Under the pieces are notes generated by a model. It was not told the DNA's origin. It worked only from the letters and a program-made list of their open reading frames with translations, and searched no databases. A stretch of DNA of 64,000 nucleotides. Origin: an uncultured Holophagales bacterium (GTDB lineage: Bacteria > Acidobacteriota > Thermoanaerobaculia > Multivoradales > UBA5704). The first letter of the stretch is position 1. Each line of letters opens with the position of its first letter. Both the position numbers and the translations under genes were made by a program. Location of the stretch: the NCBI GenBank assembly GCA_963842525.1, contig CAWJGT010000001.1, forward strand, positions 726,215 through 790,214. Reading direction: 5' to 3'. This document shows positions 4,560 through 28,546 of this stretch, piece after piece.

Positions 4560-4579
4560 ACGCCTCCTGATCAGATCCT

Positions 4580-4690: not shown

Positions 4691-4913
4691 CGCCGAATTC
4701 TGAGCCTCCTGCACCGTGGCGCAGACGACCTGCGCCGTGGCGCGGGCTGCCACGCCGAGGTGCAGGCGGACTACGCCGTGGCGCAGATACCCCACAAAAA
4801 CACCAGGAAACTCTACGAATCGGCTGGCTCAGCCCCCGAACCCGTGTAGCTCGAAGACTTTACGGCGCAGAAAGCCCTGAGCTCGCCCGGCTGGCCGCCG
4901 ACCCGGAGCAGCT

Positions 4914-5300
4914 CTATCCGTCCGTTTTCTGGGCCGCCTCCGAGTACATCGCATCCAGCCCCACCCCGGCCAGCTCCAGCGACACCCCACCCGCCGCGGC
5001 AAGCAACAGCTTCAGCGACTCCGGCGACCGCACCAGGCAGAGCGCCACGTGCAGGGCGGGCGGAATGTCGTCGTTGAACAGCTCCAGGTGCGCCACCACC
5101 CCGCCCCAATCGCCCCGGCTTTCGATGCCATAGCCGAGGAGGTCCGGCTCGCTCCGCAGCCGGAACGCCTGATCGCGGCCCGTGGCCGGCAACACCGCCG
5201 CCAGCAGCCGCGCCAGCCACAGGGTCTTGCACACCGCCACCGGCCGGAAGCCCCGAGTATAGCTTTCACCCGGCCGGAACAGCCCGTACCCGTGCTCCAA
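4914..5300 (-). CDS. Hypothetical protein (TTG start); uncertain
   Basis: Protein-like composition ('...GYGIESRGDWGGVVAHLELFNDDIPPALHVAL...'). I recognise no family. Confidence 0.25.
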   Translation of the reverse strand: MEHGYGLFRPGESYTRGFRPVAVCKTLWLARLLAAVLPATGRDQAFRLRSEPDLLGYGIESRGDWGGVVAHLELFNDDIPPALHVALCLVRSPESLKLLLAAAGGVSLELAGVGLDAMYSEAAQKTDG

Positions 5301-5439
5301 ATGCTCTTCGATGTGCCACGGCCCGGCCGCCTCGGCCTCGGCCGCGAACGGCGGCTCGTCCTGCTCGCCAACTCTATCAAGGAAGGATGAAACGCGTTGC
5401 GGGGGGAGGGAACCTCTTTGCTACTATCGGTGTAGCCAC

Positions 5440-5535
5440 GCATGGGCCTCGCACTCCTTGCCAGCGCCCACAAGGGGCGCTTCCCTCCGCCCCCCGGAGG
5501 AGATGTGTGTAAAGGTAGGGGTTGAAACCCCAGGC
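5440..5535. repeat. GC-rich multi-hairpin element (the gcgcccacaaggggcgc hairpin, a gagatgtgtgtaaaggta block, and the ggggttgaaacccc hairpin)
   Basis: The 18-nt block 'gagatgtgtgtaaaggta' and the hairpin 'gcgcccacaaggggcgc' recur in reverse complement at 49575-49631 and 49845-49862. Confidence 0.6.
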
Positions 5536-5536
5536 A

Positions 5537-8500
5537 TCACGGCTCCGGCTCCAGCACCACCTGCACCTGCACCGCGCCGCCGGGGGTGACGGTGAGCTTT
5601 TCCTGGCGCGTTCGGAAGCCATCGGCCCGGATGCTCAGCTCGTAGGTACCCGCGGCCACGCCCGGCATCTCGAAATCGCCCGCATCGCCGGTCCTCGCGG
5701 CGAGCGCCGAGGTCCATGCCGTCTGGTCGTAGACGAGGCCGTGCGCCAGGATCTCCACTCCGGAGACCGGCTCGCCGCTGGCCGCCAGGACCCGTCCGGC
5801 GATCGCACCGGTCGCGATCTCGATGTCGATCTCGCGGTCGGACGTCAGCTCCACCTGCTGGCCGTGTACGATGCCGCGGCCTTCGTGGAGGATCGTCAAC
5901 TGGTAGGTGCCGGGCGCGAGGGCCGGAATGGAGAACGCGCCTTCGTAGCCGGTCCGTGCTTCGCCCCCGAACGGCCCTCTCTGCCCTGGCCCGTAAGCCG
6001 TCAGCTTCGCACCCCGCAGCGGCTCGCCGTCCACCAGCACGCGCCCGCTCAGGGTCACCCCCTTCTCGAAGCTCAGGTCGAGATGGACCTCGCGATCTTC
6101 CGGCTCGATCCGGACCGTCCCGGCGGCCTTCCGGCCGGACGGTGTGGTCGCGGTCACGTTCCAGTCGCCGGGCGTGAGGCCCTCGACGGTGTAGCTCCCA
6201 TCCCAGCTCGCACGGCCCTGACGATCGAAGTCGAAGCGCTTGCTGGTCCCGATCTGCACCTGTGCGAGCTCCTCCGGGTCCAGGCCGGAAATCCGCCCCC
6301 GGAGGGTAGCTTCCGGCTGGCGCTTCAGCCGGACCTCGATCCCGGAGACCGGTGCTCCCGCTACCTGCATCGGGCTCGGATCCGCTTCGGCGAACCCCTG
6401 GCGCCGGACCGTCAGTCTGTAGGTCCCATCCTTGACGTAGGACAGAAGGAACGATCCGTCGGCCGCGGTGGAGGACCCGAAGCCCGAGACGTTGTCATTG
6501 CGCAGGATGACCTCGGCGCCGGAGATGGGATCTCCCGACTCCTCGTCGAGCACCTGGCCGGAGACCTCGACGCCGGCGGCCTTCTCCAGGACGATCTCGA
6601 CCTCGTTGGCCCCGGGCTGGACCGTGACCTTCACCTCGGCCGGCAGGCCGACGGCAGACATGGCGGTGACCGAAAACACTCCCGGCTCGAGGTTCAGAGA
6701 GAATCGTCCATTGCCGTCCGTGAGAGCTCTTTCGCTCTGCCAGGAGGCGCGCCGGGTGGCACCGATCTCCTCCGAGGACCGGACCGGCCGCGCCCAGATG
6801 CTGACCTTCGGCAAGGGCTCACCTGCCGAATCGCGCACGCGGCCGTCCAGCACGGAGCCCCCTTCGAGCGAGATCTCCAGGCCGTCGAGGTCCCGGTTGT
6901 CCGGAACCCGCAGGCCGAACAGGCGCCGATTCTTGTAGCCGCGGGCGGCGACCTCCAGATCGAGGCTCCCGGGCGGCAGGTTCGGGATCCGGAACTCTCC
7001 GTCCGGCCCCGTCCGGCCCCCCTCCCGCGTCGACTGGGAGATGCCGCCTCTGGCCCTGTCGTCCTGGACGAGGAGGACGCTGGCGTCCACGACCGGCTCG
7101 CCGCTCGGGCCGAGCACCCTGCCGGAGGCGCTGCGGGCGGTGGCGAGCTCGATGTCGAGGGGCACCAGGGTCGGGGCCTGCACGCCCATCGCCTCGGCAG
7201 GAGGATGGCCGGGATGCACGATCCGCAGGTCGTAGCGCCTCCCGGGCCGGAGGTCGGCGAGGAGGAAGCGGCCGTCCGCGCCGGTCCGCGCCCGTAACTG
7301 GGGCTCTGGCGGGAGAGGTGGATGCTCCATGCTCATCCTTCCACGGACCGGGAGCGCCGCGATCTCGGCCCCTGCGACCGGTGCTCCCTGGCGGTCCCGC
7401 ACGGTCCCCTCCAGGGCCGCTCCGCGAAGGAGGGTCACGACGCCGAGGTCGGTGGCGGGTGTGCTGGCGATCTCGACGCCGGCACGGCGGAGCGGAGCGA
7501 ACCCCCGGCGCTCCACCTTCAGGTCGTACAGGCCCGGGCTCAGCCGGCGGACCTCGAAGCGGCCGTCTGCACCAGACGAAGCGCGAAATTCCTCCTCGTC
7601 GAACCCCATCGGCCCCGGGACCGCCAGGCTCACCGCGGTGCCTCCCACCGGCTGCCCGGACTCGTCGACCAGCCGGCCGCGCGCCGACCGGCCGGTGTCC
7701 AGGACGATCCGGACCGGAGCCGGCGCACGGCCCGGGGATGCCGTGCGGGCCGTGGCCGAGGCACGGGCAAACCCGTCCGCGGACACGGAGAGCTGGTAGA
7801 TCGCCCGCGGCAGGAGGCCCCGCAGCCGGAAGCGGCCGTCCGGCCTGCTCCAGGCGCGCTCCCCTTCTCTGAAGTACCGGGGGCGGGCGTCCTCCAGGGT
7901 TTCGACGCGGGCCCATGGCACCGGCCTCCCCTGCGCGTCCTCGATGCGGCCCTCGACAGCGGCCTCGAGGCGCAGCGCGACCGCCACCTCGACGCCGCGG
8001 ACCGGCAGGTAGTCCGGGCTCAGGTATCCCGCGGCGAAGACGCCGAGCTGGGGAGAGAGACCCCAGGGCACCGGCAGGCGGAAGCGGCCGGACACATCTG
8101 TCCGGACCGGCGGCGCGCTAAGCCGGGGCTCGCTCCAGACGAGGGCACCGGCCACGGGCCTGCCGGAGCCGGCCTCGGTCACCCGCCCGCGGACGAGCTG
8201 CGGCGGCGCGGTCCACAGCGGCCACGGCCGCCCCGGGACCAGGGCCGGTGGAGGTGCATTCGGGATGCCGGCCCACCGGCCGTCCGGCGTCTCGATCGTC
8301 AGGAGCTGCGCTCCGTGGATCTCTTCGAGGCTCACCTTCAACCGCCCGTCGGGACCGGAGAGGCCGACCGGCTGCGATCCCCGGCGGAGGAGAGCCCGCG
8401 GCACCGGACGGCCCTCGGCGCCCTGGATCTCGACGAGGTAGAGAACGGCGGGTTGTCGGAGCTCCACCGAGGAGCCATCGACCGCTTGCTGCACCAGCCA

Positions 8501-10878: not shown

Positions 10879-12543
10879 TCAGTCCTCCACGGTGAATTCG
10901 TAGAAGAGGTCGTTGAAGACCGACCGATCGAGGAACTGATCCCATTTCTCTTTCGACAGCACCTGCGGGCTGGGCTGCGCCACGGCGCGGTCCATGACGA
11001 AGACGCGGCCCTTGGCTTTTTCGAGCAGCGCCTTGTAGATGGCCGGCAGCGGATGGACCCAGGGATCGGGTTTCAACGCCAGCGCCCATTTTTCATTGGC
11101 CGGGATCATGGCCACGAACTGGTCCGCGAGCTCCCCCTGGGCCATCTCCCGCAGCCCGCCCTTGTTCATGGTTGCGTTGTGGCTGCCGTGGTGGCCGACC
11201 TTGTAGAACACCGTGCGGCCCAATAGATCGTTCACCGTCACTTCCTCGCCGCCGGCGAGCCCGTTGGCGGCGGTCCAGCCCTTCTCGGGCCACGAGACCC
11301 AGTTGCCCCGCTGGGCGTCGCCGACGAAAAGCAAAACCTTTTTCGTCCGCGGGAGCTCGATCGCCAGCACGAGGGACGTATTGTTGATGTAGTTGTTCAG
11401 GCGCAGGGCAAACTCCTCGGCGCCGCGCAGCCAATCGGCGTCGATCCTCCGCCAGCCCCGCTCGTCGTCGTCCGGGTACTCCTTGGCAAACCCATAGTAG
11501 GCTTCGAAGAACTCACCGTGCGCGGGGTGCTTCCCCGCGGCGCTCGCCGGGATGCGGTGCCGGGGCTCGAACGGCTGGTAGGCTTCCTGCTCGTCCGAGG
11601 TGCCGGCGGCGCCGGCAACCGCGGCGAGGAAGGACTGCTCCTCGGTTGCCGCGAAGTGGAACTCCTCTTCCCCCCGGGGATCCATGTCCTTCAGCCTGGC
11701 CTCGTTCTGCGGAGGGCCCAGCGCGAAGAAACGGATTCCCGGGACGTTGGGCAAGGTCCGCGGCGCGCTGTGCGGGCTCAAGTATTCCGTGCCTTGCCGC
11801 AGGTCCGCGCGCCGCTTGACGATCTGGATTCCCTCCTTGTTGGTGATCCCCTTGATCTTTCCCGGATCGGTGGCCGCGAGCCCCCGGTCTTCATCGGACA
11901 GCTCGAATTCGAGGAGGGCTTCGAGGGTGCTCCGCACCCGCTCGTCGAACGGGTCGCTGACTCCCTGGAGCCGGTCGGCCGCGGACACCAGACCGAGCAA
12001 GGTGTCTTTATATTTCCTGCGCATTTCGTTGGCGAAATCGTTCTCAGGGTCCTCGGTCCAGGCGAGCCACAGCTTGTCGATGGTCAAATTCTCGAAGACG
12101 GCCCTCTCCGAGCGGAACCCCGAGACGTGGTCCTCGTGCTCGTGGGTAACCGCCACCAGGTTGAGGTGGCCGCCGGTGGTATCCCGGATGTGTTCCGCCA
12201 CGTCCTTGATCGGGCGGACCAGCGTCGATCCCTTCTTCATTCCGCAGTCGATCAGCATATAGAACGGCTTGCCGTCATCCTGCCGGAAAGCGAGCAAAAA
12301 ACAGTCGCCGTGCCCCTGGCGGTACATGCGGACCTTGACTCCGGACCGGGGCGGCTCCATGACGACCGACGAGGCCGGCGGGGCGCCGGACCCCGCCGTC
12401 TCGGCAGGGCTCCGCACAGGGCTGCGCTTCGCGGCCGTCTTCTTCGACTTGGCGGCGCGTTTTGGAACAGTTTTTTTCGGCGCGCGTTTCGCGGCTGCCT
12501 TCTTCGGTGCGGGCTTGGGTTTCGCGGCTGCTTTTTTCGCCAT
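10879..12543 (-). CDS. MBL-fold metallo-hydrolase with an N-terminal lysine/alanine-rich histone-H1-like tail
   Basis: 'MAKKAAAKPKPAPKKAAAKRAPKK...' tail, then 'MLIDCGMKKG...VAVTHEHEDHVSG', which is an HxHxDH metallo-beta-lactamase-fold motif. Confidence 0.65.
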   Translation of the reverse strand: MAKKAAAKPKPAPKKAAAKRAPKKTVPKRAAKSKKTAAKRSPVRSPAETAGSGAPPASSVVMEPPRSGVKVRMYRQGHGDCFLLAFRQDDGKPFYMLIDCGMKKGSTLVRPIKDVAEHIRDTTGGHLNLVAVTHEHEDHVSGFRSERAVFENLTIDKLWLAWTEDPENDFANEMRRKYKDTLLGLVSAADRLQGVSDPFDERVRSTLEALLEFELSDEDRGLAATDPGKIKGITNKEGIQIVKRRADLRQGTEYLSPHSAPRTLPNVPGIRFFALGPPQNEARLKDMDPRGEEEFHFAATEEQSFLAAVAGAAGTSDEQEAYQPFEPRHRIPASAAGKHPAHGEFFEAYYGFAKEYPDDDERGWRRIDADWLRGAEEFALRLNNYINNTSLVLAIELPRTKKVLLFVGDAQRGNWVSWPEKGWTAANGLAGGEEVTVNDLLGRTVFYKVGHHGSHNATMNKGGLREMAQGELADQFVAMIPANEKWALALKPDPWVHPLPAIYKALLEKAKGRVFVMDRAVAQPSPQVLSKEKWDQFLDRSVFNDLFYEFTVED

Positions 12544-12562
12544 GGCGGTCCTCGCAATCAGA

Positions 12563-14539
12563 TCAGAAATCAGGGACTGCTACCGTGCGGCGGTGCACGG
12601 CCGCGAAATGCTCGCCGTCGAGGTCGACGGCCGGGGCGGCGCCGTAGAACGGGTTGTCGATCGCCCCCTCTTCGCCCTGGAGGAACCTGCGGACCCGGTC
12701 CAGCTCCTGGTTGTCGGCCACATCGCCGCGGGTCGAAATGGCGTAGCGGACACATTGCCGGGCCGGGTCGAGGATCAGGGTGCAGCCGCGCCGGAAGCGG
12801 AAATCCGGGGACTCGATCTTCCCATCCCCTTCGTCGACGGCCTTCTGGACCTCGGGGTCGAAGTACCCCCGCCGGCGCTGGCGGACCTCGACCACCAGGT
12901 CGGTGACCAGCGTGTCGCGGAAGCCGCGGCGGCGGGAGACCCGCACGGAATGCACCTCCAGCGAGGGAGTGCGGCCGTCCCGGCCCCGGTAGACCGAACG
13001 CGGTGCGCCGGGGTCCAGGGTCAGCCCGAAGGCAGCCAGTTGGCGCCGCATCGACTCCTGCATCAGCCAGAAGTAAGTGATCTTCGCGTTCTCCTCCATC
13101 GTGTCGAAGACCTTCTTGCGTTCCGTGGTCAGGTCCCAGTCGAGCGTCAGCTTCCCGACCTCCTTCTTGCCGTCCTTGCCGGCGGGCATCTCGATGCCCT
13201 CGAAAAGAGCCTTGGTTGCCGATTGATCGTAGGCGGCTTCACCCGCTCCGTCTTCGTCCAGCAGCGGGAAGCGGAGGTCGCTCTCCGCCATGCTCCGCAC
13301 TCCCTCGGGGTAGATCCCCCACTGCCGGAAGGCCTCGATGAACGCCACCCGCTGATTGTTCTGGTCATGGGGATAGACCTCGGTATCGGCGGTGACCACG
13401 GCCCGCAGGTAGGTGCCGAAATCGACGTCCACCGGCGGGCAATAATCGAGCCCACGAATGCACATGGTCAACACGGCGTCGGCGACCGCCGCAGCCTCCC
13501 GGGCCAGCCGGCGGACGAGATCGGGATGGATCTCCCCCTCGCGCAGGACGCCCGTGCCGTTGGTGGCAATGCGGAGGAGATCGGCGCTGCGCGCCTTGTA
13601 GATGGCCAGGAACGCCGAGAACACGGCGGCCAGCAGGATGCCGCCCCGGTCGTGCGGCAGGTGGGCCTCCTGCAGCCGCGCAGGATCGGGCTTGTGGGCC
13701 TCCCAGACCCCGTCCGCGTTCTTGCTCCCCAGCGCCTCGCGGAGGGCGCCGCGCTTCCCCAGGGCCTGGCCGAACTGCTGCGCCAGCTCGCCGAGCATGC
13801 TCTGCCGCTCCAGGTTGCCGCGGGTCCTGGCGATCTGGTGCGCGAGGATCTCCGGATGCGCAAAACGCTGGAAGATGGCCACGATGTCGGCGAACCCCTC
13901 GTGCAGCGCGTGCACGTCCGGGTTCGTAGCCTCGTTGAAGGAGGGGTGCAGCCCGTCGAGCAGCGCGTGCGTGGTCTCATGCGCCACCACGTCGTAGGAC
14001 AGGCTGGTGAAGACCATGCCGCCCGGCGCCTGCCCCGGTCCCCGGCCGCGGGTGGGAAAATACCCGAACAACAGCGCCTTCTTGCGCGGGCTGTAGTAGG
14101 CGTTGGCCTCCCGCAAAGCGTGCGGATAGATCCGCAGGCGGGGGACGAATTGCTCGCCGGTGACCTGGCCTTCCTTGTTGCGGATCACCCGCTTGGCCCA
14201 CAACGCCACCCGGCCGAGGGCCCGTTCGAAGTGGTCGATGGTGTTCATCGCCACGGCGTACACCATCTGCTGGTGGAACTGCGGCCCCCCTTCGGCCGGC
14301 GAGAGGCCGTCCTGAGCCAGTAGGAAGGGGTGATTCAGATCCACCGGGGCATAGAAGGCATCGCTGGCGGGGTCGAAATCCACCACCTCGATGTAGTCGC
14401 CGACCGGGCCGGGCTTCAGCCCCTCCTCCCAGGCCAGCTCCAGCGTCAGCTCGCTGATCGACAGGGTATCCAACTGCGCGCGGACGCCCGGATCAAAGGC
14501 GAACACCCGCAATCTGCGCTGAGCCGGCTTCTGGTTCAT
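12563..14539 (-). CDS. Thermolysin-like (M4-type gluzincin) zinc metallopeptidase with no obvious signal peptide
   Basis: 'VVAHETTHALLDG' followed about 20 aa later by 'HEGFADIVA' (HExxH...E spacing as in thermolysin). 'NAYYSPRKKALLFGYF' resembles thermolysin 'NAFWNGSQMVYGDG'. It lies 20 nt upstream of the MBL gene on the same strand. Confidence 0.6.
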   Translation of the reverse strand: MNQKPAQRRLRVFAFDPGVRAQLDTLSISELTLELAWEEGLKPGPVGDYIEVVDFDPASDAFYAPVDLNHPFLLAQDGLSPAEGGPQFHQQMVYAVAMNTIDHFERALGRVALWAKRVIRNKEGQVTGEQFVPRLRIYPHALREANAYYSPRKKALLFGYFPTRGRGPGQAPGGMVFTSLSYDVVAHETTHALLDGLHPSFNEATNPDVHALHEGFADIVAIFQRFAHPEILAHQIARTRGNLERQSMLGELAQQFGQALGKRGALREALGSKNADGVWEAHKPDPARLQEAHLPHDRGGILLAAVFSAFLAIYKARSADLLRIATNGTGVLREGEIHPDLVRRLAREAAAVADAVLTMCIRGLDYCPPVDVDFGTYLRAVVTADTEVYPHDQNNQRVAFIEAFRQWGIYPEGVRSMAESDLRFPLLDEDGAGEAAYDQSATKALFEGIEMPAGKDGKKEVGKLTLDWDLTTERKKVFDTMEENAKITYFWLMQESMRRQLAAFGLTLDPGAPRSVYRGRDGRTPSLEVHSVRVSRRRGFRDTLVTDLVVEVRQRRRGYFDPEVQKAVDEGDGKIESPDFRFRRGCTLILDPARQCVRYAISTRGDVADNQELDRVRRFLQGEEGAIDNPFYGAAPAVDLDGEHFAAVHRRTVAVPDF

Positions 14540-14839: not shown

Positions 14840-17564
<2,725 letters not shown>

Positions 17565-17624
17565 CTGCCTTTCGATGGTCCTTTCGAGACGAGGCGGAGC
17601 TACGCTCAGGATGTCCAGCGGAGA

Positions 17625-18332
17625 TCAGAGGATGGTACCCATCTTGTCCCAGGTCGTCGCATCGTAGCCGAGCACTGGCTGACCACTGGCGGAGACCGTG
17701 CTGAAATCCCAGGCGGCGGTCTTCGAGAACATCAGCTTGGCGATCGCTTTGCTTGCTCCAGACGCGAACTTGCCCTTGTACTCGTTCTCGTAGATGGTCC
17801 CGCGCGGCGCGCGGCCGGAGGCGAGGGTCAAACCGAAGCCGTAGAGATGGTTGATCTCCTGCGCCGTACATGGCACGATCGCATTTTCGAGGATCTCGAC
17901 TCCGTAGGTATCCTTGAGCAACCCTTTGAGGTCGGCGAGAGTCCGGAGGGCATGCCCACCTCCAAGGATCCCCACCACCTCGTCGTCTTCGGAGTCGCTC
18001 TGTCCACCACTCGCCGCCGCCACAGCAGCAGCGGAGCTCACGTGAGCACGTTGGATCGTGCCTCGGAAAACGCCATTCGTCCTCTGTGCGGTTTTCGCCT
18101 GAGCCATCCGCGCCAAGGCGCTTTGCACGTGTGGCGCAACAGGTCGCGCCGCCGCATGCGGAGTCTGGACCAGGTTTGATACCGCTGATGAAGACTGTGT
18201 CGCCGGCAATGACCTCTCCGGCATCTTTGCTTGAGCCATACCCGCGACGGCTGCCTGCACATGCGCAGCCGGAGCACGCGCCGGGACAAGTGGCAGATGC
18301 GACGGCATCGACGGCTTTCCTGGCATGGGCAA
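17625..18332 (-). CDS. Hypothetical protein with an N-terminal Pro/Ala-rich region carrying a repeated 'AAHVQAA(L/V)..MAQAK' motif and an unknown C-terminal domain
   Basis: 'APAAHVQAAVAGMAQAK' and 'PVAPHVQSALARMAQAK' repeats. The motif is shared with the N-terminus of the ART-like protein at 55748..56740. It is co-oriented with the SIR2 gene. Confidence 0.5.
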   Translation of the reverse strand: MPMPGKPSMPSHLPLVPARAPAAHVQAAVAGMAQAKMPERSLPATQSSSAVSNLVQTPHAAARPVAPHVQSALARMAQAKTAQRTNGVFRGTIQRAHVSSAAAVAAASGGQSDSEDDEVVGILGGGHALRTLADLKGLLKDTYGVEILENAIVPCTAQEINHLYGFGLTLASGRAPRGTIYENEYKGKFASGASKAIAKLMFSKTAAWDFSTVSASGQPVLGYDATTWDKMGTIL

Positions 18333-18504
18333 GCCTCCTGGAACCGTGGACGGACTGCGACCCTTCTCAGAGTACTCCTATCCTTCCTGATTAACAATGC
18401 AAGGGGCGAGAGCAGCGAGAGCGGCTGTCGAGGCTGCGGCGAGTCGCCGAAGCGTTGTAAGGTTCCCTGGGACGAGGCACCCCCGAGGGAAAGGGAGCTC
18501 TCTG

Positions 18505-19627
18505 ATGTGGACATCCACCCGGTTCACGGAGCGGTTCGGCCGCCGCTATCCGATCGTGCAGGGGCCGATGGGGGGCGGCGCGTCGACGCCTGAGCTGGTG
18601 GCGGCGGTCTCGGGCGCAGGTGGGCTGGGATCGCTCGGCTGCTATCACCTGGAGCCCGCCGCGATCCTGCGCGCCGCGGCCGACATCCGGCGCCTGACCG
18701 ACGAGCCGTTTGCCCTCAACCTCTGGATCCCCCGCGAGCAGGAGGACGCCGGAAGCCCTACGACCCCTGTAGGGGCAACCCTTGTGGTTGCCCACGGTCC
18801 CGAGGCTGCCCGGGCCCTGACGCGTCTCCAGCCGTACCGGGACGAGCTCGGGCTGCCGCCCTTCACGGAGCCTCCGGCGCCCACCGTCCAGGACTTCGAG
18901 CTGCAGTTCGAACGCCGTGCTCGAAGCCCGGCCCGCTGCCTTCAGCTTCATCTTCGGTTTGCTGCCCGCGCCGATGGTGGCGGCGGCGCACCGGCGGGGG
19001 ATCGAGCTGATCGGCACTGCGACGACAGTCGACGAGGCCGAGGCCCTGGAGGCGAGCGGCGTCGACCTCGTGTGCGCCTCCGGGTTCGAGGCCGGGGGGC
19101 ACCGCGGCAGCTTCCTCCGTCCCGCGGAGCAGTCGCTCACCGGCACGCTGTCGCTCGTCCCCCAGGTCGTGAGCGCCGTGCGGGTTCCGGTGCTGGCCGC
19201 GGGCGGCATCGCCGACGGCCGCGGCGTTGCGGCGGCTCTGGTGCTCGGCGCCGAGGCGGCGCAGATCGGCACGGCCTTCCTGATGTGCCGGGAGTCCGGA
19301 GCGAGCGACCTCCATCGTGCTGCCCTCGCGGACCACGCTCGCGCGCGGCGCACCACCCTCTCCCGGGCCTACACCGGCCGGCTCGCGCGGATGCTCGCCA
19401 ACCGCTTCACGGACGAGATGGCTCAGCCCCCCACCGAGATCCTCCCCTGGCCGCACCAGAACGAGCTCACCCGGGAAGCTCGCCTTGCAGCGGCCCGCGA
19501 CGGCCGCGAGGACCTTCTGCCGTTTTACGGCGGCCAGTCGGCATCCCTGGCTTCCCCCGGTTCTGCCGCCGACCTCGTGGCAACCCTGGCCGCGGAGACC
19601 CGCGAAGCTTTCGAGCGGTCCGCGTAA
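18505..19627 (+). CDS. Nitronate monooxygenase (NMO / 2-nitropropane dioxygenase family); apparent frameshift near 18905-18915
   Basis: RBS aagggag, then 'MWTSTRFTERFGRRYPIVQGPMGGGASTPELVAAVSGAGGLGSLG'. The C-terminal part continues in another frame: 'LEARPAAFSFIFGLLP...DLVCASGFEAGGHRGSF...VPVLAAGGIADGRG'. Confidence 0.7.
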
Positions 19628-19639
19628 GGGGGCAGCCCC

Positions 19640-20150
19640 GAGCACTTCGCGCCGAACGTCGCAAACGGAGCTTCCTTTGCGACGAGTCAGCCATTCAGCA
19701 GCGCACCCAATCCATGTCTCGGCGCAAAGAAGCGATTCAGTGCGACGCGATAGAGATTCAGCGGTGCAAAGATCGATCTCGCGTCGCACTGGATCGATCC
19801 TTTGCGCCTCGATAAGCCTTCCTCGATTCCTGGATGGGTTTTGCGCCACGACGAAGCGCTACGCCGTCGCACGTAGACCTGCGACGGCGCAATAGAGTCG
19901 CACATCGGCGCAAAATAGACTCTCATCGCCTCGCTGTGCGCCAACAGAGCGACGACGAAGGCTTTGTCGTCGCAAATTATCGATAGAGAGTCGCAAAGGA
20001 TAGATTCGCGGCGCACTCTAGTCATCCAACGGCGCACTGAACGCTTCTTTGCGCCGGGCAAACGGATACTGCGTGACCCGCTGCCGTTGTCTGCGAGGCC
20101 CCGCCGGGCCTTTGCGCCAGCGGGTGTACAATGGAGCCTCGATCTGGAGC
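19640..20150. repeat. Intergenic array of short palindromes built on TGCGAC/GTCGCA and GGCGCAA/TTGCGCC cores
   Basis: For example, gtgcgacgcga...N28...tcgcgtcgcac, and cgccgtcgca-cgtagacc-tgcgacggcg. There are more than 15 occurrences of these cores within ~500 bp. Confidence 0.6.
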
Positions 20151-20157
20151 CCGCACC

Positions 20158-20553
20158 ATGAACCGTTTCCTTCGCCCGTTGCCCGCCCTTCTTGCCATCC
20201 TATGGCTCGCCGCCACCGCGCTATCCGCGCAGGAGACCGGCGACCGCGCCGGCGAGGCACCCTCGCGCCGTCACCATCGGTACCCACGGCCTCGTCGAAC
20301 GCGGCCAGGGGCCTCGAGGCCAGGGGCGGTGGCGAGGGTTCCCGATCAGCGTCAGCCTGCGCGACGCGCCGCTGCCGGAAGTCCTCCGCGCGTTCGCCCA
20401 AATCGCCGGCTTCAACCTGGTCCTCGACCCCAGGATCCCCCAGGGGACCGTGACGGTCGAGCTCAAAGACGTGCCCTGGGACCAGGCGCTGCACGTGATC
20501 CTCAAGACCCACGGCCTCGCAGCCGAGGTCGCGGCCGGTTGTGGTTGATCGCC
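20158..20553 (+). pseudogene. Small secretin-N/STN-like domain protein (signal peptide plus a PilQ-N0-like domain), broken by at least 2 frameshifts
   Basis: 'MNRFLRPLPALLAILWLAATALSAQE' in one frame. The domain 'ISVSLRDAPLPEVLRAFAQIAGFNLVLDPRIPQGTVTVELKDVPWDQALHVILKTHGLAAEV' is in another frame, with a third shift at the end. Confidence 0.5.
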
Positions 20554-20944: not shown

Positions 20945-20980
20945 TTGACGCTAGTGCCCAGCAGACGCTAGTATTTTGGC
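20945..20980 (+). promoter_or_regulatory. Sigma70-like promoter candidate for the TIR operon (TTGACG-N18-TAGTAT) in a locally AT-richer stretch
   Basis: 'ttgacgctagtgcccagcagacgctagtatttt' lies ~50 nt upstream of the ATG at 21028. Confidence 0.3.
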
Positions 20981-21027
20981 ATACTCACTGCAGCACAGCT
21001 ACTCTTGGATGCCGAGGACCCGAAAGA

Positions 21028-22296
21028 ATGCCTTACGAATTTTTCTTCAGCTATACGCGGGCCAATAATGACGATTATCTCCGGAAATTCTTTGCCGAGC
21101 TGAACGACGCGGTCCGCCGCAAGGCCGGTTATCCCCAGGGGACCCTGACGGGCTTTTTCGACCAGAAGCGCCTCGAAGCGGGCACGGAATGGAACCAAGC
21201 CCTGGTCACCGCGCTCCAGGAAAGCGCGACCCTGGTCTGCGTCTACTCTCCCGCCTACTTCAAGAGCGAGTTTTGCGGACGGGAGTGGGGGGTTTTCGAG
21301 GAGCGCTGGCGGCTTCATGGGGCGCTTCGGCAGGCAGCAGATCCCGCAACCTCGGAGTGGCCCTCCGTTATCAAGCCTGTCCTCTGGATCCCGCTCCAGG
21401 AAGATCTCCCGGCCGGCGTTGGCAGCAAGCAGTTGGCTGGCGGCAACCCGCAGGGGGCGTTGAGCACGGTGGGTCTACTCAACATGCGGATGAGATATTC
21501 GAAGTACAGGATCGGTTATTTGGACTTCATCGACAAACTTGCGGATGAGATCCTGAAGGCCCGCGGTATTTATAAAGGCAAGCTGCCACGGGTGACTCCC
21601 GAGCCTGACTTCCGGACTTTCCAGAGCGCCTTTCACGCACCGCCGGCTCCTGGACAGGCTGCGGCTCCGAAGCCACAGGACCGTGGTCCCAATGGCGTCC
21701 AGTTCGTCTTCGTCGCCGGGAAACCTGACGAGTTGCGGGGGACCCGCAGCGTCGACAGCTACGAGCAGAAAGGGGGCAGGGATTGGAAACCCTATTACCC
21801 TCAAAAGCTCAGGCCTATCGGAGCCCTCGCTCAAGGCGTCGCCGCGAGCGAGGACCTCGACTTCTTCAGCGAGGAATTGCCCTTTAGCGCACAATTGCCC
21901 CAGGACGTGCGCAACGCCGAGAATCAGGCGAACATCGTGGTTTTAGTCGTCGACGGATGGACCGCTACATTGCCTTCCTACGATCAGATCCTCGAGCAGT
22001 TCGACAAGGAGGGCTACTTCAACTGCAGCGTCCTGGTCCCTTGGAACGACGCCGATGCCGAGACCGCCCAGCAGCGTGCCGCGCTCGAAGCCCAGGTCCG
22101 CAGCGTCTTCCGCCGGCACTCGAGACATCCGCTCTATTTCCGGGACGCCATCACATCGGAAGAAGATCTGAGGGAGCAGCTCCGTGACGTACTGATCCGC
22201 CTCAAGGCAGAGGTTTTCAACCAGGCCCCAGTGAGTCGGCCGGTGCCGAACGGCGGAGTCAAGCCCGTCGTCTCGGGTCCTGGAGGTGACCGGTGA
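21028..22296 (+). CDS. TIR-domain protein (N-terminal TIR, ~280-aa unknown C-terminal region)
   Basis: 'MPYEFFFSYTRANNDDYLRKFF...' (FxSY box) and 'SPAYFKSEFCGREW' (SxxYxxSxxCxxEW, with a candidate catalytic Glu). GC is visibly lower than in flanking genes. Its stop overlaps the start of the next gene (gtGA). Confidence 0.75.
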   Translation: MPYEFFFSYTRANNDDYLRKFFAELNDAVRRKAGYPQGTLTGFFDQKRLEAGTEWNQALVTALQESATLVCVYSPAYFKSEFCGREWGVFEERWRLHGALRQAADPATSEWPSVIKPVLWIPLQEDLPAGVGSKQLAGGNPQGALSTVGLLNMRMRYSKYRIGYLDFIDKLADEILKARGIYKGKLPRVTPEPDFRTFQSAFHAPPAPGQAAAPKPQDRGPNGVQFVFVAGKPDELRGTRSVDSYEQKGGRDWKPYYPQKLRPIGALAQGVAASEDLDFFSEELPFSAQLPQDVRNAENQANIVVLVVDGWTATLPSYDQILEQFDKEGYFNCSVLVPWNDADAETAQQRAALEAQVRSVFRRHSRHPLYFRDAITSEEDLREQLRDVLIRLKAEVFNQAPVSRPVPNGGVKPVVSGPGGDR

Positions 22297-25200
22297 GCAG
22301 CCGTCCTCCCGGCACGATCATCACTTTCTATTCCTACAAGGGCGGTACAGGCCGTTCCATGGCGCTCGCAAACATCGCCTGGATCCTGGCGTCCAGCCAC
22401 AAACGTGTACTGGTGGTGGACTGGGATCTCGAGGCTCCGGGCCTGCACCGCTATTTCCGTCCCTTCCTGCTCGACAAGCAGCTGAGCTCCTCCGCGGGGG
22501 TGATCGACTTCGTGATCGATTATGCGACCGAAGCGATCAAACCTGTCACAGAGGGAGAGCCGTTGCCCGACAACTGGTACATCGAGCAGGCCGACATCCT
22601 TCGTTATGCCATTACGCTCGACTGGGAGTTCCCATCGGGCGGCGTCCTCGACCTCATCCCAGCGGGCAGGCAGGGCCCGAGCTATGCCGCGCGTGTAAAC
22701 TCGTTCAACTGGCAGAACTTCTACGAGCGCTTGGGCGGCGGCCGGGTCCTGGATGCAGCCAGAGACCATATGCGGGCGGAGTACGACTACATTCTCATCG
22801 ACAGCCGGACGGGCGTCAGCGACACCTCCGGCATCTGCACCGTGCAAATGCCAGACGCTCTGGCGGTCTGCTTTACCTTCAACAATCAGAGCATCGAGGG
22901 AGCCGCCGCGGTGGCGCGCTCCGCTCATGAGCAGCAGGCCAAGCGCAGTGATCGCGCCTTCAGGGTCTTCCCCATTCCCATGCGGGTCGATGCGTCCGAA
23001 GTGGACAAGCTGAATACCCGGCGGCGCTACGCCTGGTGGATGTTCGACTCCCTGCTGAGCCACATCCCGAGTGCCGACCGCAGGCTCTATTGGGGCGAGG
23101 TCGAAGTGCCCTACATCCCGGTCTTCGCCTACGAGGAGATCCTCGCCTCCTTCCGCGAAGAGCCGAGCGATCCGAAGACCGCTCTCTCTGCCATGCTGCG
23201 GACCACCCGCCACCTGACCGGCGTCGGTGGCGAATACTCTTTTTCCATCTCACCCGAACAGCGGCAGGAGATCCTGGCGGAGTTCGCCAGCACTCCCGGG
23301 GAATTCGCGCTGGACAGCGCTCCTGTGATTCCAAAGGAGACGGCTGCCGAAGAGCAGACGCGGGTGGCCGAAGGCGCCTTTGCGTCTTTCTCTCCGCAGG
23401 AGCAGGCCGATCTCCGGCACCTCCTGACCCGTCTGGTGCGGATCGCCGGCGGGCCGGACGAGGCGGAGGGAGCTCACGGGCGGCTGCGAGTGAGAGTCCA
23501 GGATCTGGGTCCGGCAGCCCTCCCCCTCATTGACAGGCTCACAGCGCTGAGGCTCCTCACGGTACAAATGGAGGCCGGAACGAAGAGTGTGGAGCTCGCC
23601 GATGACGGACTCGCGCAGAGCTGGCCTCGCCTGCGCGACTGGATCGCGGGGGACCTCGAATTCCTTCTCTGGCGCCAGAGGCTGCGGGACCGTTGCCGGG
23701 ATTGGGAGAAGACCGATCACAGCAGCGACCTGCTGCTGCAAGGGTTGCCGTTGAGGGCAGCGCAGCGCTGGCTGCTGGAACGGGGAGCCGATCTCAACGA
23801 GGTGGAGACTGCCTTCATCCAGCAGTCTGCCGCGCTGGAATCCCGCTCGCAGTACTCATTTTCCGCCCGAGGCTTGCGAGCCTTCATCATCCGGCCGTTC
23901 GGCATCAAGCAGGAGATCGATTTCGACCGTGTGGAGAAGGAGCTGATCGATCCGGCTCTCAGCCAGCTCAATGTCGGGGGCCGGACAACGGTCGATATCC
24001 TGCGGGCAGGCAACATCCGGCTCGACATGTTCCAGCGGCTTCTCGCCGCCGATCTGGTCGTCGCGGATGTCTCGATCCATAACGCAAATGTCTTTTATGA
24101 GTTGGGCATCCGCCATGCCCTGCGGGATAAACGGACCTTCCTGCTGCGCTGCGAAGGCGATCAATATCCTTTCGATCTGCAGACCGATCGTTATTTTGTC
24201 TACCGGAAGGACAATCCAGCGGCCAGCCTGAGCCTGCTGACGACGGCTCTCGCGCGTACGATCACCTCCGAGGACATCGACAGTCCCGTCTTCCGGTCGC
24301 TCCCCGGCTTGAGGCAGCAGGACGGCTCGAGCCTCCTGGCGATCCCGCAGGATTTCATCGATGCCATCGAGCAGGCTGCGGCCACGCGCCAGCGTGGCGA
24401 CCTCGAGCTGCTTTCCGCGGAGATCCGGGACCTGGAATGGGCGCGCGGAGGACTGCGGATCATCGGCCGCAAGCAGTTTGATATCAAAGCCTATTCTGGA
24501 GCGCGGAGCACCTGGGAGGCAATCCGGAAGCTCGACCCGGATGACTTGGAGGCGAATACGCTGCTGGGAACCATTTACCAGCGCCTGGGAGAGCCCGTGA
24601 ACTCCGACCAAGCGATCCAGCGTGTCCTGCGCCACGATGAAGCAGCGGGAGACCAACGGGCCGAGGCTCTTGCCCTTCTCGCCCGTAATGCCAAGACCCG
24701 CTGGAGGGAGGAGTGGCACAGGCTCCCCTCCGAGCGCTTGCGTGAGGAGGCCTTGCGCTCCCCGTTCCTTGAGGAGTCTGCTCTCGCGTATATGCGAGCT
24801 TTCGAAGAATCCTTCAATCACTTCTACCCGGGCCTGAACGCGCTGGCAATGCTTACGGTTCAAATGGAGCTGGCGAGCGCTTTGCCGGAGATCTGGTTCG
24901 AGCGCTTCGATCAAGAAGAGGATGCCCGGAGGGAGATCGAAAGGAGAAACGAGCAGATCCGCAAGATCGCCTCTGCCGTGGAGCTGTCTCTGGCGGCAGC
25001 CAAGTCGCGCCTTGAGCGCCGGCAGGAAAGCGACATTTGGGTGGAGATCAGCGAGGCCGACTTTATCTGCCTGACCTCGAACCGACCGCGACGGGTCGCC
25101 GATGCCTATCGCAAGGCTCTGGCGAGCGTCCCGGATTTTGCCATCGATGCGATCAACGGCCAGCTCAGGATGTACCAACTGCTTGGAGTCCTGAGCGCCA

Positions 25201-25880
25201 ACGTCGAGGCTGCTCTTTCCATACCCACCTTTACCAGGCTCGGGCCAGAGACGCCGCAACCCGCCGGAGAACGGCCGCGCGCCCTTCTTTTCACCGGCCA
25301 TAGGATCGACGCCCCCGGCCGCGAGGAGCCGCGCTTCCCACCCGACAAGGAAAGTGTCGCCCGGGAACAGATCCAAAGCGCGGTGGCCGCCGAGATGGCG
25401 CGGCCGGGAGGCGTAGCCTATGGAATCGCGGGCGGGGCGAGCGGCGGCGACATCCTCTTCCACGAGGTCTGCGCCGACCTGGGAATGTCTACCCGTCTCT
25501 ACCTCGCACTGCCGAAAGGCGACTATATCGTCGAGTCGGTTCAGTCGGCCGGGCCTGAGTGGGTCGAACGCTTCAACCAGCTCTACCAGAAACATCCGGA
25601 GGTGCGCGTGCTCTCCCCCTCTTCGGACCTCCCGCGGTGGCTCAGCGAGAGACCCGGCCAATATTCAATCTGGCAACGTAACAACCTGTGGATGCTCTAC
25701 AACGCGCTCGCGGAGGACAACAAAGACCTGACCTTGATCGCCCTCTGGGATGGTAAGGAGGGCGACGGGCCCGGCGGCACGGGAGACCTCGTCACCAAGG
25801 TCAAGGAACGCGGCGCCAAAGTGATCCACCTGAACACCGAGGCGATTTTCGTCACCTACTCAACGGAGCCCGCATCATGA
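22293..25880 (+). CDS. 1195-aa multidomain protein: ParA/MinD-like P-loop ATPase, helical linker, TIR-like/deoxyribosyltransferase-like Rossmannoid domain, TPR-like helices, and a C-terminal SLOG/LOG-like domain
   Basis: Walker A '[18 protein letters not shown]', '[13 protein letters not shown]', Walker B '[14 protein letters not shown]'. Middle domain 'AFIIRPFG...[28 protein letters not shown]'. C-terminus '[16 protein letters not shown]' and '[16 protein letters not shown]', which resembles the LOG motif PGGxGTxxE. Confidence 0.7.
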
Positions 25881-26017
25881 GCCGTTTCCTTCGCCCGTTG
25901 CCCGCGGTCGAGCTCAAGAACGTGCCCTGGGACCAGGCTCTGCACGTGATCCTCAAAACCCACGGCCTCGCAGCCGAGGTCGACGGCCGGTTGTGGCTGA
26001 TCGCGCCGCCCCGCTAA
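25877..26017 (+). CDS. 46-aa chimeric mini-ORF: an in-frame, internally deleted (91-codon) copy of the secretin-N gene at 20158
   Basis: '[46 protein letters not shown]'. Positions 25865-25905 match 20146-20186, and 25906-26003 match 20455-20553. Confidence 0.45.
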   Translation: MSRFLRPLPAVELKNVPWDQALHVILKTHGLAAEVDGRLWLIAPPR

Positions 26018-28266: not shown

Positions 28267-28546
28267 CCCCTGTCCCCATGCGCTTTAACTTACCCCCGGG
28301 ACGTGCCAGATCGCCCAAGGTTCACACCCGGGGCTACCCAGTTCCGCCCTCCGGGCTCTCGAATCCTGGGCACTTCGACCAACATTCTTGCGAGCCCGGA
28401 GGGCGCCATTCGGTAGCCCAGGGTGTGAACCCTGGGCGGGAGCTTCGATCGTCATCCGCACCATACGAGCCTCCTTGACCATTTCCACCTTACCACGGAG
28501 GGATGAGGCTGTATCCTTGTGCGGCCCTGAGCAAGGAGCCCGATCC

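Follow-up and report, generated by a model that had tools for sequence, protein, structure and literature searches.

The gene pair and its flanking repeats

The window (the entire stretch of 64,000 nucleotides analyzed) is part of an acidobacterial genome carrying a two-gene cassette, in which a TIR enzyme gene (gene 1) is followed by the gene for a giant fusion protein (gene 2). The features of the locus are as follows:

20146-20552, + strand: left copy of a duplicated small signal-peptide/STN-domain gene, frameshifted (STN Pfam E 5.5e-9), bearing the left repeats 20146-20186 and 20454-20552
20945-20974, + strand: weakly supported match to a sigma-70-like promoter, 54 nt before gene 1
21028-22296, + strand: gene 1, FxsC-type TIR protein (ORF, 422 aa, ATG start)
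21040-21561, + strand: TIR domain of gene 1, aa 5-178
21697-22230, + strand: FxsC C-terminal domain of gene 1, aa 224-401
22293-25880, + strand: gene 2, five-part fusion protein (ORF, 1195 aa, GTG start)
22314-22922, + strand: KGGVGR-variant ParA/MinD-like ATPase of gene 2, aa 8-210
23361-23726, + strand: helical/winged-helix region of gene 2, aa 357-478
23868-24392, + strand: ThsI/BcTprN-like N-glycosidase-type (TIR/DRHyd-class) domain of gene 2, aa 526-700
24492-25082, + strand: TPR-S (tetratricopeptide repeats-sensor) region of gene 2, aa 734-~930
25275-25856, + strand: YpsA-like SLOG domain of gene 2, aa ~995-1188
25865-26004, + strand: right direct repeat, a ~95% copy of the small signal-peptide/STN gene with an internal deletion

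The two coupled ORFs and the motifs quoted in the original prediction were all found as claimed. The TGA of gene 1 is overlapped by the GTG of gene 2 (GTGA), so that the genes are translationally coupled, and this GTG is preceded by a GGAGG at a distance of 8 nt. Because gene 2 is nearly invariant from G7 onward in an alignment of 21 homologues, the GTG at 22293 is the sole start that keeps its conserved N terminus. Homologues of each ORF at 50 to 80% identity indicate that both are real genes. Promoter matches numbered 2 against 0.9 expected, and the match upstream of gene 1 is therefore not above chance.

The lower GC content and flanking direct repeats that had been put forward as signs of horizontal acquisition were borne out: the GC fraction is 0.60 to 0.65 over 21 to 26 kb and 0.67 to 0.72 in the flanks, and direct repeats of ~95% identity lie on both sides of the gene pair. 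The right repeat (25865-26004) joins copies, ~95% identical, of 20146-20186 and 20454-20552, and it supplies the stop codon of gene 2 together with its last five codons. These repeats are a decayed duplication of the small signal-peptide/STN-domain gene. At the nucleotide level, L082, the most closely related locus, is homologous over 21023-25838 only, i.e., just the two genes. The low GC content, the flanking repeats, and the differing chromosomal contexts of relatives together indicate that the cassette is mobile.

Domain composition of the two proteins

Gene 1 had been identified as a TIR gene, which proved correct (TIR_2, PF13676; E 5.5e-10 in the Pfam profile search), but its two-domain FxsC type had been overlooked, as had the pairing of this type with KGGVGR ATPases that NCBIfam models already catalogue. 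The FxsC_Cterm profile scores 93.4 bits (cut-off, 55) and the FxsC_Nterm profile 106.7 bits, which is under its cut-off of 130; many of the 77 homologues are labeled "FxsC-like." Residues F6, W55, C83, E86, and R93 of the TIR domain are invariant in 57 homologues, including the Glu at the catalytic position (candidate Glu86, in C83-G-R-E86-W), and we predict the FxsC-type TIR protein of gene 1 to be catalytically competent. Its C-terminal part is a five-stranded flavodoxin-like alpha/beta domain that presumably serves as a docking domain for the ATPase partner. When the gene 1 TIR family profile was compared with 10 sampled ThsB TIRs, it matched only those with 4TM-SLOG candidate effector partners, and sequence comparison places the gene 1 TIR outside the type VII/VIII ThsB clade.

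Gene 2 has ~24 full-length homologues (34 to 76% identity), whose named hosts are all Acidobacteriota. Its N-terminal region is a ParA/MinD-type ATPase with an unusual Walker A motif, as proposed: the "KGGVGR-motif variant" model NF047398 scores 148.5 bits (cut-off, 90), and in alignments with ParA/MinD PDB chains KGGvGKt is matched by KGGtGRs. The invariant residues are K16, G17, G18, G20, R21, D43-W-D45, and D170 (Walker B). Where a P-loop normally has Lys, gene 2 has R21, a change that may leave the ATPase inactive; MinD/ParA-like domains of FxSxx-type systems have been predicted to be inactive (Kaur et al. 2020, PMC7159879). PADLOC, suggested as a check of the pair, recognizes no system here and reports only a candidate match (PDC-M28B; E 3e-25) on the ATPase. 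The predicted STAND-like linker is matched by nSTAND1 (PF20703; E 6e-18) at profile positions 262-378 of 379; this match is confined to the C-terminal third of the profile, and the STAND P-loop core is absent from gene 2.

The next region had been described as a Rossmannoid domain, reminiscent of DNPH1 and TIR-like folds, with a conserved Glu, and profile matches and conservation place it in the TIR/DRHyd class. It is matched by the PADLOC CBASS "Effector TIR" profile at ~1e-6 and weakly by DNPH1/Rcl, whose alignments place the Glu of YELG in register, and D592, N597, N599, Y602, E603, G605, R607, and H608 are invariant. Residues 530-856 align with ThsI-type plasmid proteins annotated as "TRAFs-binding domain" (pairwise E 4e-24 to 1.5e-28; 26 to 29% identity), with which they share the motif ADLVxADxS..NxN..YELGIRHA. 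One such plasmid protein adjoins a TIR 75.6% identical to the ThsB of a verified type VIII Thoeris system, and it is this adjacency (76% in round terms) that leads us to regard aa ~530-856 as ThsI-like. The invariant N-x-N-x-x-x-E603 motif has the same spacing as N80-P-N82...E86 of BcTpr, in which the N82A and E86A mutations abolished production of a cADPR isomer (Liu et al. 2023 preprint, 10.1101/2023.05.26.542521).

The ThsI-type alignment runs contiguously into the repeat region. Tetratricopeptide repeats had been noted there, and generic TPR matches were obtained in the PDB profile search, but the region had not been recognized as TPR-S (PF20308; E 4.7e-13; 50 bits; cut-off, 27.6). The C-terminal domain has the SLOG fold, as originally assigned, with the YpsA-like motifs TGH1003xID1006xPxR1010xxPR1014FP, GGASGGD1053, WQR1129xN, and GDGPGGT1163.

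Relatives and known systems

The gene pair is co-conserved: an FxsC-type TIR gene lies directly upstream of a KGGVGR ATPase gene in L001, L002, L008, L020, L036, L072, L079, L080, and L082-L086, the pairing is present in all informative loci, and 14 further putative same-contig pairs tie the two homologue lists. In most FxsC-ATPase pairs, WD40 or TPR repeats are present but a nucleotide-sensor domain is not. The KGGVGR ATPase is fused to TPR-S and patatin in L020 and to SLATT_1 in L036. In L008 and L020, a ThsI-like/SLOG protein is encoded by a gene of its own downstream of the ATPase gene, and in L084 a MAP3K_TRAF_bd/TPR-S gene takes this place. In L086, the order is SLATT, TIR, and a protein with KGGVGR, NB-ARC, and TPR-S matches that matches gene 2 over 54% of its length, an arrangement that parallels ThsH+ThsI operons (Yirmiya et al. 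2025 preprint, 10.64898/2025.12.03.692087). The ThsI-like/TPR-S/SLOG module is mostly found as a stand-alone protein beside a CapV-like patatin (patatin E down to 1e-45); these pairs have no TIR gene, and the module can therefore work without ThsB. Sampled neighbors of homologous cassettes gave no defense-island signal. Judged from sequence, two conserved associations, i.e., the FxsC-type TIR/KGGVGR ATPase pair and the ThsI-like/TPR-S/SLOG module, are merged in the cassette.

"Core Tpr" assemblies that include YpsA-SLOG and patatin were reportedly described by Burroughs and Aravind in 2020. They are reported to share with the cassette a glycosidase/TIR-like domain, TPR-S, and YpsA-SLOG, and the stand-alone homologues noted above pair with patatin; the cassette module, in contrast, has no patatin partner, is fused to an ATPase, and is coupled to an FxsC-type TIR.

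In type VIII Thoeris (10.64898/2025.12.03.692087) and BcTir/BcTpr (10.1101/2023.05.26.542521), as in the cassette, a TIR gene adjoins a gene for an N-glycosidase-type domain plus the TPR-S of Aravind, with the same N-x-N-x-x-x-E catalytic-motif spacing. In contrast to these systems, the ThsI-like unit of the cassette is embedded in a 1195-aa protein, preceded at the N terminus by a KGGVGR ATPase and STAND-type helical module and followed at the C terminus by a YpsA-like SLOG; the TIR is a 422-aa two-domain FxsC-type protein of another clade, and the host phylum is Acidobacteriota. The presumed signal sensor of those relatives is the TPR, not SLOG. Type I Thoeris (ThsB plus the SIR2-SLOG protein ThsA) likewise combines a TIR protein with a SLOG-fold effector, and a logic of NAD+-derived signaling is likely common to both. 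FxsC/KGGVGR-ATPase pairs (NF040588, TIGR04276, and NF047398) share the order of a two-domain TIR followed by a protein headed by a KGGxGR ATPase, whereas the C-terminal half of gene 2 is ThsI-like/TPR-S/SLOG rather than WD40, TPR, or NB-ARC-TPR alone. Unlike FxSxx-COOH-type systems (PMC7159879), the cassette has no adjoining FxsA peptide, radical-SAM/SPASM, or metallopeptidase genes. STAND/NLR-type TIR immune proteins (Avs/AVAST-TIR and nSTAND1) resemble the cassette in combining an NTPase, a helical/winged-helix region, a C-terminal sensor region, and a TIR effector, but the cassette has a ParA/MinD-type (SIMIBI) ATPase in place of the STAND P-loop core and encodes its TIR separately.

Proposed function

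The reading we favor, at a probability of roughly 0.55, is a horizontally acquired Thoeris-like anti-phage system built on NAD+-derived signaling, in which gene 2 would be a composite regulator/effector. It draws on what the domains were identified as, on the conservation of catalytic-type residues, on the ThsI-type homology, on the strict FxsC-ATPase pairing, on the insertion footprint, and on the recurrence of TPR-S, patatin, and SLATT modules fused or adjacent to the KGGVGR ATPase. Docking by the FxsC C-terminal domain would bring the TIR to the part of gene 2 formed by the KGGVGR ParA-like ATPase and the STAND-type helical module, a part that may act as a nucleotide-dependent dimerization or threshold switch replacing a STAND NTPase core. 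Upon infection, the gene 1 TIR would cleave NAD+ to yield a cyclic-ADPR-type signal, as its invariant Glu and the ThsB precedents suggest. This signal would be bound by the TPR-S and/or the YpsA-like SLOG (cf. type VIII Thoeris, BcTpr, and ThsA) and would activate the ThsI-like N-glycosidase domain (E603), whose depletion of NAD+ or another nucleotide would arrest the infected cell. Type VIII Thoeris consists of ThsB and ThsI (a CMP hydrolase with TPR) and defends against phages via canonical cADPR (Yirmiya et al. 2025 preprint, 10.64898/2025.12.03.692087); the preprints disagree on the glycosidase-like domain, which is a signal maker in one (10.1101/2023.05.26.542521) and a signal-activated effector in the other (10.64898/2025.12.03.692087). 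This disagreement weighs against the favored reading, as do the absence of a PADLOC system match, the missing defense-island signal near homologous cassettes, the position of the gene 1 TIR outside the type VII/VIII ThsB clade, the sensor-free layout of most FxsC-ATPase pairs, the stand-alone module-patatin pairs that lack a TIR gene, and the Lys-to-Arg change in the P-loop.

A possible though doubtful alternative is an NLR-like sensor that dispenses with a second messenger: the ATPase, the STAND-type helical module, and the C-terminal region would sense a phage protein or metabolite directly, and oligomerization would switch on both TIR-class domains, that of gene 1 (in trans) and the glycosidase-like one within gene 2, simply as NAD+-depleting effectors, with SLOG and TPR-S as autoinhibitory or metabolite-sensing parts. 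The cassette would then resemble TIR-containing Avs/STAND proteins or SARM1. FxsC-type TIRs are mostly partnered by ATPase-WD40 or ATPase-TPR proteins, an NLR-like layout lacking a nucleotide-sensor domain, and for this wider family direct sensing, with a TIR as the effector, is a better fit than signaling. The gene 2 linker is also the C-terminal part of a STAND NTPase, STAND cores can be displaced by other NTPases (Kaur et al. 2021), and BcTpr depletes NAD+, with cADPR-isomer binding lifting autoinhibition in a SARM1-like manner (10.1101/2023.05.26.542521). However, SLATT, patatin, TPR-S, and SLOG, with which this ATPase occurs in fusions or as a neighbor, are hallmarks of nucleotide-signal systems; a diffusible cADPR signal drives the ThsI relatives (10.64898/2025.12.03.692087), and the TIRs nearest that of gene 1 are partnered by candidate effectors that contain SLOG.

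A physiological role outside immunity is unlikely; in it, the cassette would serve regulation or development as an NAD/nucleotide-sensing module, for example as kin of the actinobacterial FxSxx-COOH peptide system or of YpsA-type cell-division control. FxsC was defined within a peptide-modification neighborhood, Bacillus YpsA influences cell division and oxidative stress, and the sampled neighborhoods lack a defense-island signal; against this, no peptide, radical-SAM/SPASM, or metallopeptidase genes immediately flank the cassette, which is a low-GC insertion with contexts that differ among relatives, has homology to an effector type verified in anti-phage defense, and belongs to a wider family associated with CapV-like patatin and SLATT effectors. 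We consider it very improbable that the insertion junction, by rewriting the 3' end of gene 2, left a nonfunctional, decaying remnant. The repeat-derived end of gene 2 and the damage to both STN copies fit such decay, but both genes are full length without internal stops, all family-invariant columns are intact, the SLOG core stops short of the repeat junction, and over 2.5 kb the sequence agrees at 99.96% identity with an independent contig derived from reads.

The Thoeris-like reading with a non-SIR2 effector was broadly right in the original prediction, which missed the ThsI/BcTpr-type glycosidase and TPR-S module of type VIII Thoeris. Its statement that such a pair had not been described was too strong, because the core had been predicted in 2020 and relatives have been experimentally verified: core Tpr with TIR, YpsA-SLOG, and patatin goes back to a computational report of that year, as far as it is summarized in 10.1101/2023.05.26.542521. 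In the parts of the literature covered, the sole element that appears undescribed is the fusion of the ATPase to ThsI-like/TPR-S/SLOG with an FxsC-type TIR partner. Each part of the cassette is already known from anti-phage immunity in bacteria, and what appears new is how they are combined.

Gene layout and genomic surroundings

The cassette comprises two genes flanked by copies of a small gene, as follows.

21028-22296: gene 1, encoding an FxsC-type TIR protein of 422 aa (open reading frame [ORF] read from the window)
22293-25880: gene 2, encoding a five-part fusion protein of 1195 aa, with a GTG start inside the overlap with the gene 1 TGA
20131-20552: left copy of a signal-peptide/STN gene, frameshifted
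25877-26017: right copy of the same gene, without the middle ~270 nt, reading [46 protein letters not shown]

The gene 1 stop and the gene 2 start overlap by 4 nt, and the two overlapping ORFs, together with every motif quoted in the original prediction, are present exactly as described. Both have homologues on other contigs, with identities of up to 74-80%, and are therefore real genes. The low GC content and flanking direct repeats that had been taken as signs of horizontal acquisition were also recovered: the GC content of the cassette is 0.60-0.65 versus 0.67-0.72 on either side, and the right repeat (25865-26004) joins ~95% copies of 20146-20186 and 20454-20552 into one composite. The repeats are copies of one small gene whose product has a signal peptide and an STN domain (a sequence reading, with a Pfam match for STN), and the stop codon and last five codons of gene 2 fall within the right repeat. 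This duplication around the cassette resembles the trace of an insertion that was of the Campbell type or otherwise recombinational. In the closest relative locus (L082), nucleotide homology to the window spans only 21023-25838, which indicates that the conserved unit consists of the two genes alone. In L082 and a second relative locus, L085, the two genes sit in different chromosomal contexts. The neighbors of the cassette in the window are the STN-domain remnant and genes for nitronate monooxygenase (NMO), cupin, UbiD, and penicillin amidase; a search of the window for a patatin gene found none.

Several additional features were observed in the window. The NMO gene (18397-19815) appears to be split over two reading frames, the N-terminal part being read in the 18397 frame and the final 220 residues in the 18917-19627 frame, reflecting either a frameshift/pseudogene or an assembly error. 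Inverted repeats are densely clustered at 19676-20056, in the interval that separates the NMO gene from the duplicated STN gene (e.g., 37-nt arms at 19721-19757 and 19772-19808, 84% complementary). Three Acido-Lenti-1 RNA motifs exceed the Rfam gathering score (28393-28436, minus strand; 49450-49495, minus strand; 51394-51439, plus strand), and two of them lie on either side of a further low-GC patch at ~50-52 kb (GC 0.52-0.59), possibly a second inserted island. Together with the taxonomy of the closest relatives, the three motifs suggest an acidobacterial host.

On the minus strand, the low-GC patch at 15912-18332 (0.59-0.60) contains a gene for a 550-aa protein with a pair of SIR2_2 domains (E 3.4e-32); upstream of it, in the same orientation, is a 235-aa ORF without a family match. 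This region, which shows weak PADLOC matches to the SIR2 part of ThsA1, LmuA, and PDC-S65, may be a separate defense gene pair. The double-SIR2 gene (15912-17564) was considered as a missing effector of the cassette and rejected, as it lies on the other strand, beyond the housekeeping NMO gene, and 0 of 80 related loci contain a homologue of it.

Domain composition of the two proteins

Gene 1 matches Pfam TIR_2 (E 5.5e-10) and the NCBIfam model of the FxsC C-terminal domain (93.4 bits; cutoff, 55); the FxsC N-terminal model scores 106.7 bits, below its cutoff of 130. Glu86, in C83-G-R-E86-W, is invariant among 57 gene 1 homologues. Its placement in an S-x-[WF]-C-x-x-E motif was read from the sequence, and the position is that of the catalytic Glu of the S-x-W-C-x-x-E motif in TIR NADases. 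The FxsC C-terminal domain family includes 911 cluster representatives (E<=1e-3; clusters at 50% identity), nearly all of which are ~410-440 aa long with the domain at the C terminus; its fold is assignable only as "flavodoxin-like."

Gene 2 encodes the following regions.

aa 8-210: KGGVGR-variant ParA/MinD-like ATPase (NCBIfam "KGGVGR-motif variant AAA ATPase," NF047398; 148.5 bits; cutoff, 90)
aa 357-478: helical region, its match limited to the final third of nSTAND1 (positions 262-378 of the 379 in the profile)
aa 526-700: glycosidase-like domain (a consistent match, ~1e-6, to a CBASS "Effector TIR" profile; weak DNPH1/Rcl matches)
aa 734-854: TPR-S (PF20308; 50 bits; cutoff, 27.6)
aa ~995-1188: C-terminal SLOG-fold domain (structure model; pLDDT 90.3)

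The ATPase aligns with ParA/MinD structures (KGGtGRs versus KGGvGKt), with a conserved Walker B and invariant K16, G17, G18, G20, R21, D43, D45, and D170. The signature Lys of the deviant Walker A motif (KGG) and the Walker A'/B aspartates are present; the canonical P-loop Lys (GK[ST]) is absent, the invariant R21 (KGGTGRS) standing in its place, and this Arg-for-Lys substitution is the defining feature of the NF047398 variant. As the nSTAND1 match is restricted to the end of the profile, the P-loop NTPase core of STAND proteins is absent from gene 2. The glycosidase-like domain has no Pfam match in gene 2, and a Pfam search of 29 such domains returned nothing significant. Its invariant residues are D592, N597, N599, Y602, E603, G605, R607, and H608, and the weak DNPH1/Rcl matches from the PDB profile search align the Glu of its YELG motif. 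For TPR-S, the same type of search yielded generic TPR matches and no ASK1 match.

The C-terminal domain is firmly assigned, from the predicted structure, to the SLOG fold and a YpsA-like clade; the modeled Rossmannoid fold has Gly-rich loops after strands 2 and 4. No SLOG, LOG, or YpsA sequence profile matched it (Pfam, none at E<=1; PDB profile search, nothing), and no precomputed Pfam match covers this domain among the 120 homologues listed. The domain calls of the original prediction were largely right (the TIR, the ATPase, the STAND-like linker, the TIR/DRHyd-class domain, and the SLOG fold); of the profile relationships it proposed, that to TIR was recovered, and that to SLOG/LOG was not, the fold coming from the model.

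Conserved pairings and relation to Thoeris

An FxsC-type TIR gene lies directly upstream of a gene beginning with the KGGVGR ATPase in 13 of the numbered loci of relatives (L001, L002, L008, L020, L036, L072, L079, L080, and L082-L086), that is, in every locus with a detected ATPase whose 5' flank lies on the contig. The co-conservation anticipated for the pair therefore holds, and the FxsC and ATPase homologue lists are further linked by 14 contigs of matching size. The rest of the ATPase protein varies: some homologues carry WD40 or TPR repeats, in L008 a sequence reading shows a hydrophobic tail at the C terminus, L036 encodes an ATPase-SLATT_1 fusion (11764-13914, minus strand), and L020 encodes an ATPase-nSTAND1-TPR-S-patatin protein with a hydrophobic C-terminal tail (1951-6303, plus strand). 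In L086 (4933-11401), a SLATT gene is followed by a TIR gene and a KGGVGR/NB-ARC protein with TPR-S, which matches gene 2 over 54% of its length. The ATPase joined to a module of the type found in the window occurs in about 24 full-length relatives.

A second association involves this module, i.e., gene 2 residues ~526-1195, which normally occurs by itself as a 660-700-aa protein; its hosts include Acidobacteriota, Nitrospirales, Bradyrhizobium, Variovorax, and Methylobacterium. A gene for a ~400-aa patatin adjoins it, in the same orientation, in 39 of 71 loci (upstream in 34, downstream in 5; median gap, 51 nt), and these patatins match CBASS phospholipase effector profiles at E values of 1e-40 to 1e-45. 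The CapV-like patatin and the stand-alone module form a widespread pair without a TIR gene (loci L003-L078; e.g., L003:6779-9965 and L004:6826-10013), the hosts of which also include Pseudomonadota beyond Bradyrhizobium; PADLOC does not recognize this pair as a system.

Unfused arrangements link the two associations. L008 carries an FxsC gene, an ATPase gene, and a separate module gene ~1.6 kb downstream on the same strand; the order is FxsC, ATPase-TPR-S-patatin, patatin, module in L020 and FxsC, ATPase-TPR, separate TPR-S gene in L084. The cassette in the window merges both associations. A further combination of the ParA-like ATPase with other effectors occurs in L058 (6929-13019), with the order TIR, ParA-like ATPase, TIR, patatin, module.

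Type VIII Thoeris consists of ThsB and ThsI ("CMP hydrolase and TPR") and responds to canonical cADPR, presumably sensed by the TPR; some of its operons also include the SLATT effector ThsH (10.64898/2025.12.03.692087). In Bacillus cereus, BcTir/BcTpr confers phage protection; BcTpr combines a MilB-like N-glycosidase domain at its N terminus with a TPR, and N82 and E86 of the former are needed for synthesis of a cADPR isomer (10.1101/2023.05.26.542521). A tblastn search of plasmids with gene 2 aa 526-930 recovered ~410-aa "TRAFs-binding domain" proteins beside small TIR genes, and one such TIR, from Pseudomonas plasmid pA7J1, shares 75.6% identity with a verified type VIII ThsB (Table S1 of 10.64898/2025.12.03.692087). 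Because aa 530-856 align to these ThsI-type proteins (26-29% identity; pairwise E 4e-24 to 1.5e-28), one of which lies beside a type VIII-like TIR, the middle of gene 2 is a ThsI-like unit; both share the motif ADLVxADxS..N(P/A)N..YELGIRHA. A ThsI-type TPR protein was also observed with three different flanking TIR-domain genes on a 9.9-kb Acinetobacter johnsonii plasmid (L088; NZ_CP140719.1, 1938-4782); one of these TIRs shares 44% identity with a type VII ThsB, and a RelE/HigA toxin-antitoxin pair adjoins the cluster.

As in Thoeris generally, the TIR gene adjoins an effector-type gene in one operon and retains Glu at the catalytic position. Unlike type I Thoeris, gene 2 lacks the SIR2 NADase of ThsA fused to a STALD-type SLOG. 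It resembles type VIII in having a CMP-hydrolase/MilB-like N-glycosidase-type domain followed by a TPR-S scaffold, and it differs in that ThsI is a stand-alone protein of ~410 aa, whereas the unit in the window is embedded at aa ~526-930 of 1195. The partner TIR differs as well: with the profile of the gene 1 family, the two type VIII TIRs score -2.5 and -2.6 bits versus 27.7 and 22.1 bits for TIRs associated with 4TM-SLOG, and of ten labeled ThsB TIRs this profile matches only partners of "4TM SLOG" candidate effectors. These scores place the gene 1 TIR outside the type VII/VIII ThsB clade. The proposal of a Thoeris-like system with a non-SIR2 effector is supported, and the cassette can be described more precisely as type VIII-like.

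Inactive MinD/ParA-like domains attached to AP-ATPases are mentioned for FxSxx-type peptide systems by Kaur et al. (2020, PMC7159879). Unlike an FxSxx-COOH system, the cassette has no FxsA precursor peptide, radical-SAM/SPASM FxsB, or metallopeptidase within about 8 kb. The novelty claimed for the pair survives in part. Its parts and several of the pairings have been described or cataloged; as cited in the 2023 preprint (10.1101/2023.05.26.542521), core-Tpr assemblies with TIR, YpsA, and patatin were listed by Burroughs & Aravind (2020). Literature searches on KGGVGR, FxsC, and TPR-S/nSTAND1 yielded nothing relevant. A KGGVGR ParA-like ATPase that is fused to a ThsI-like/TPR-S/YpsA-SLOG unit and paired with an FxsC-type TIR appears undescribed in the literature examined.

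Proposed mechanism and implications

We favor, with a probability of roughly 0.55, a reading in which the cassette combines a TIR-made NAD+-derived signal, sensing by TPR-S/SLOG, a ThsI-like effector, and an ATPase switch. The FxsC C-terminal domain would dock the TIR onto the ATPase/helical module, which would act as a nucleotide-dependent switch standing in for the STAND core. Upon infection, the gene 1 TIR would make an NAD+-derived cyclic signal to be bound by the TPR-S and/or SLOG of gene 2, and the ThsI-like domain would then deplete NAD+ or another nucleotide. What the analysis itself shows is which domains the proteins contain, that catalytic-type residues are conserved, how the genes are paired and fused, and the footprint of an insertion.

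The main rival is an NLR-like system with direct sensing, the two TIR-class domains serving simply as NADase effectors. It fits the many WD40 and TPR variants of the ATPase protein, as well as a stand-alone module that works with patatin without any TIR gene, and we nevertheless judge it unlikely. Two results count against a defense role as such: PADLOC does not recognize the gene 1-gene 2 pair as a system, and no defense-island signal was found around homologous cassettes in the sampled neighborhoods.

Returning to signal-dependent activation, we offer a broader model tentatively, with more doubt than belief. The FxsC-type TIR and the KGGVGR ATPase may form a distinct, widespread immune switch, in which a dimerizing SIMIBI ATPase took the place of an NLR-like receptor's STAND core and the TIR is recruited in trans via the FxsC C-terminal domain. 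Fusion with the ThsI-like/TPR-S/SLOG unit in the window might then allow one polypeptide pair to make an NAD+-derived signal, sense it, and carry out the response with ATP-dependent gating; such a mechanism is not described for any Thoeris type.

The fused and unfused series (the window, L008, L020, L036, L084, and L086) represents a natural set for asking which domain senses the TIR product, a question that also bears on type VIII Thoeris, where the TPR is only the presumed sensor. These loci could also reveal the contribution of a ParA-like ATPase whose P-loop Lys is replaced by Arg. Were the cassette functional, it would represent an additional, ATPase-gated system of the Thoeris type in the Acidobacteriota, which defense-system screens have sampled poorly, and would tie together three separate sets of predictions, i.e., FxsC/KGGVGR pairs, TPR-S/ThsI effectors, and YpsA-like SLOG sensors.
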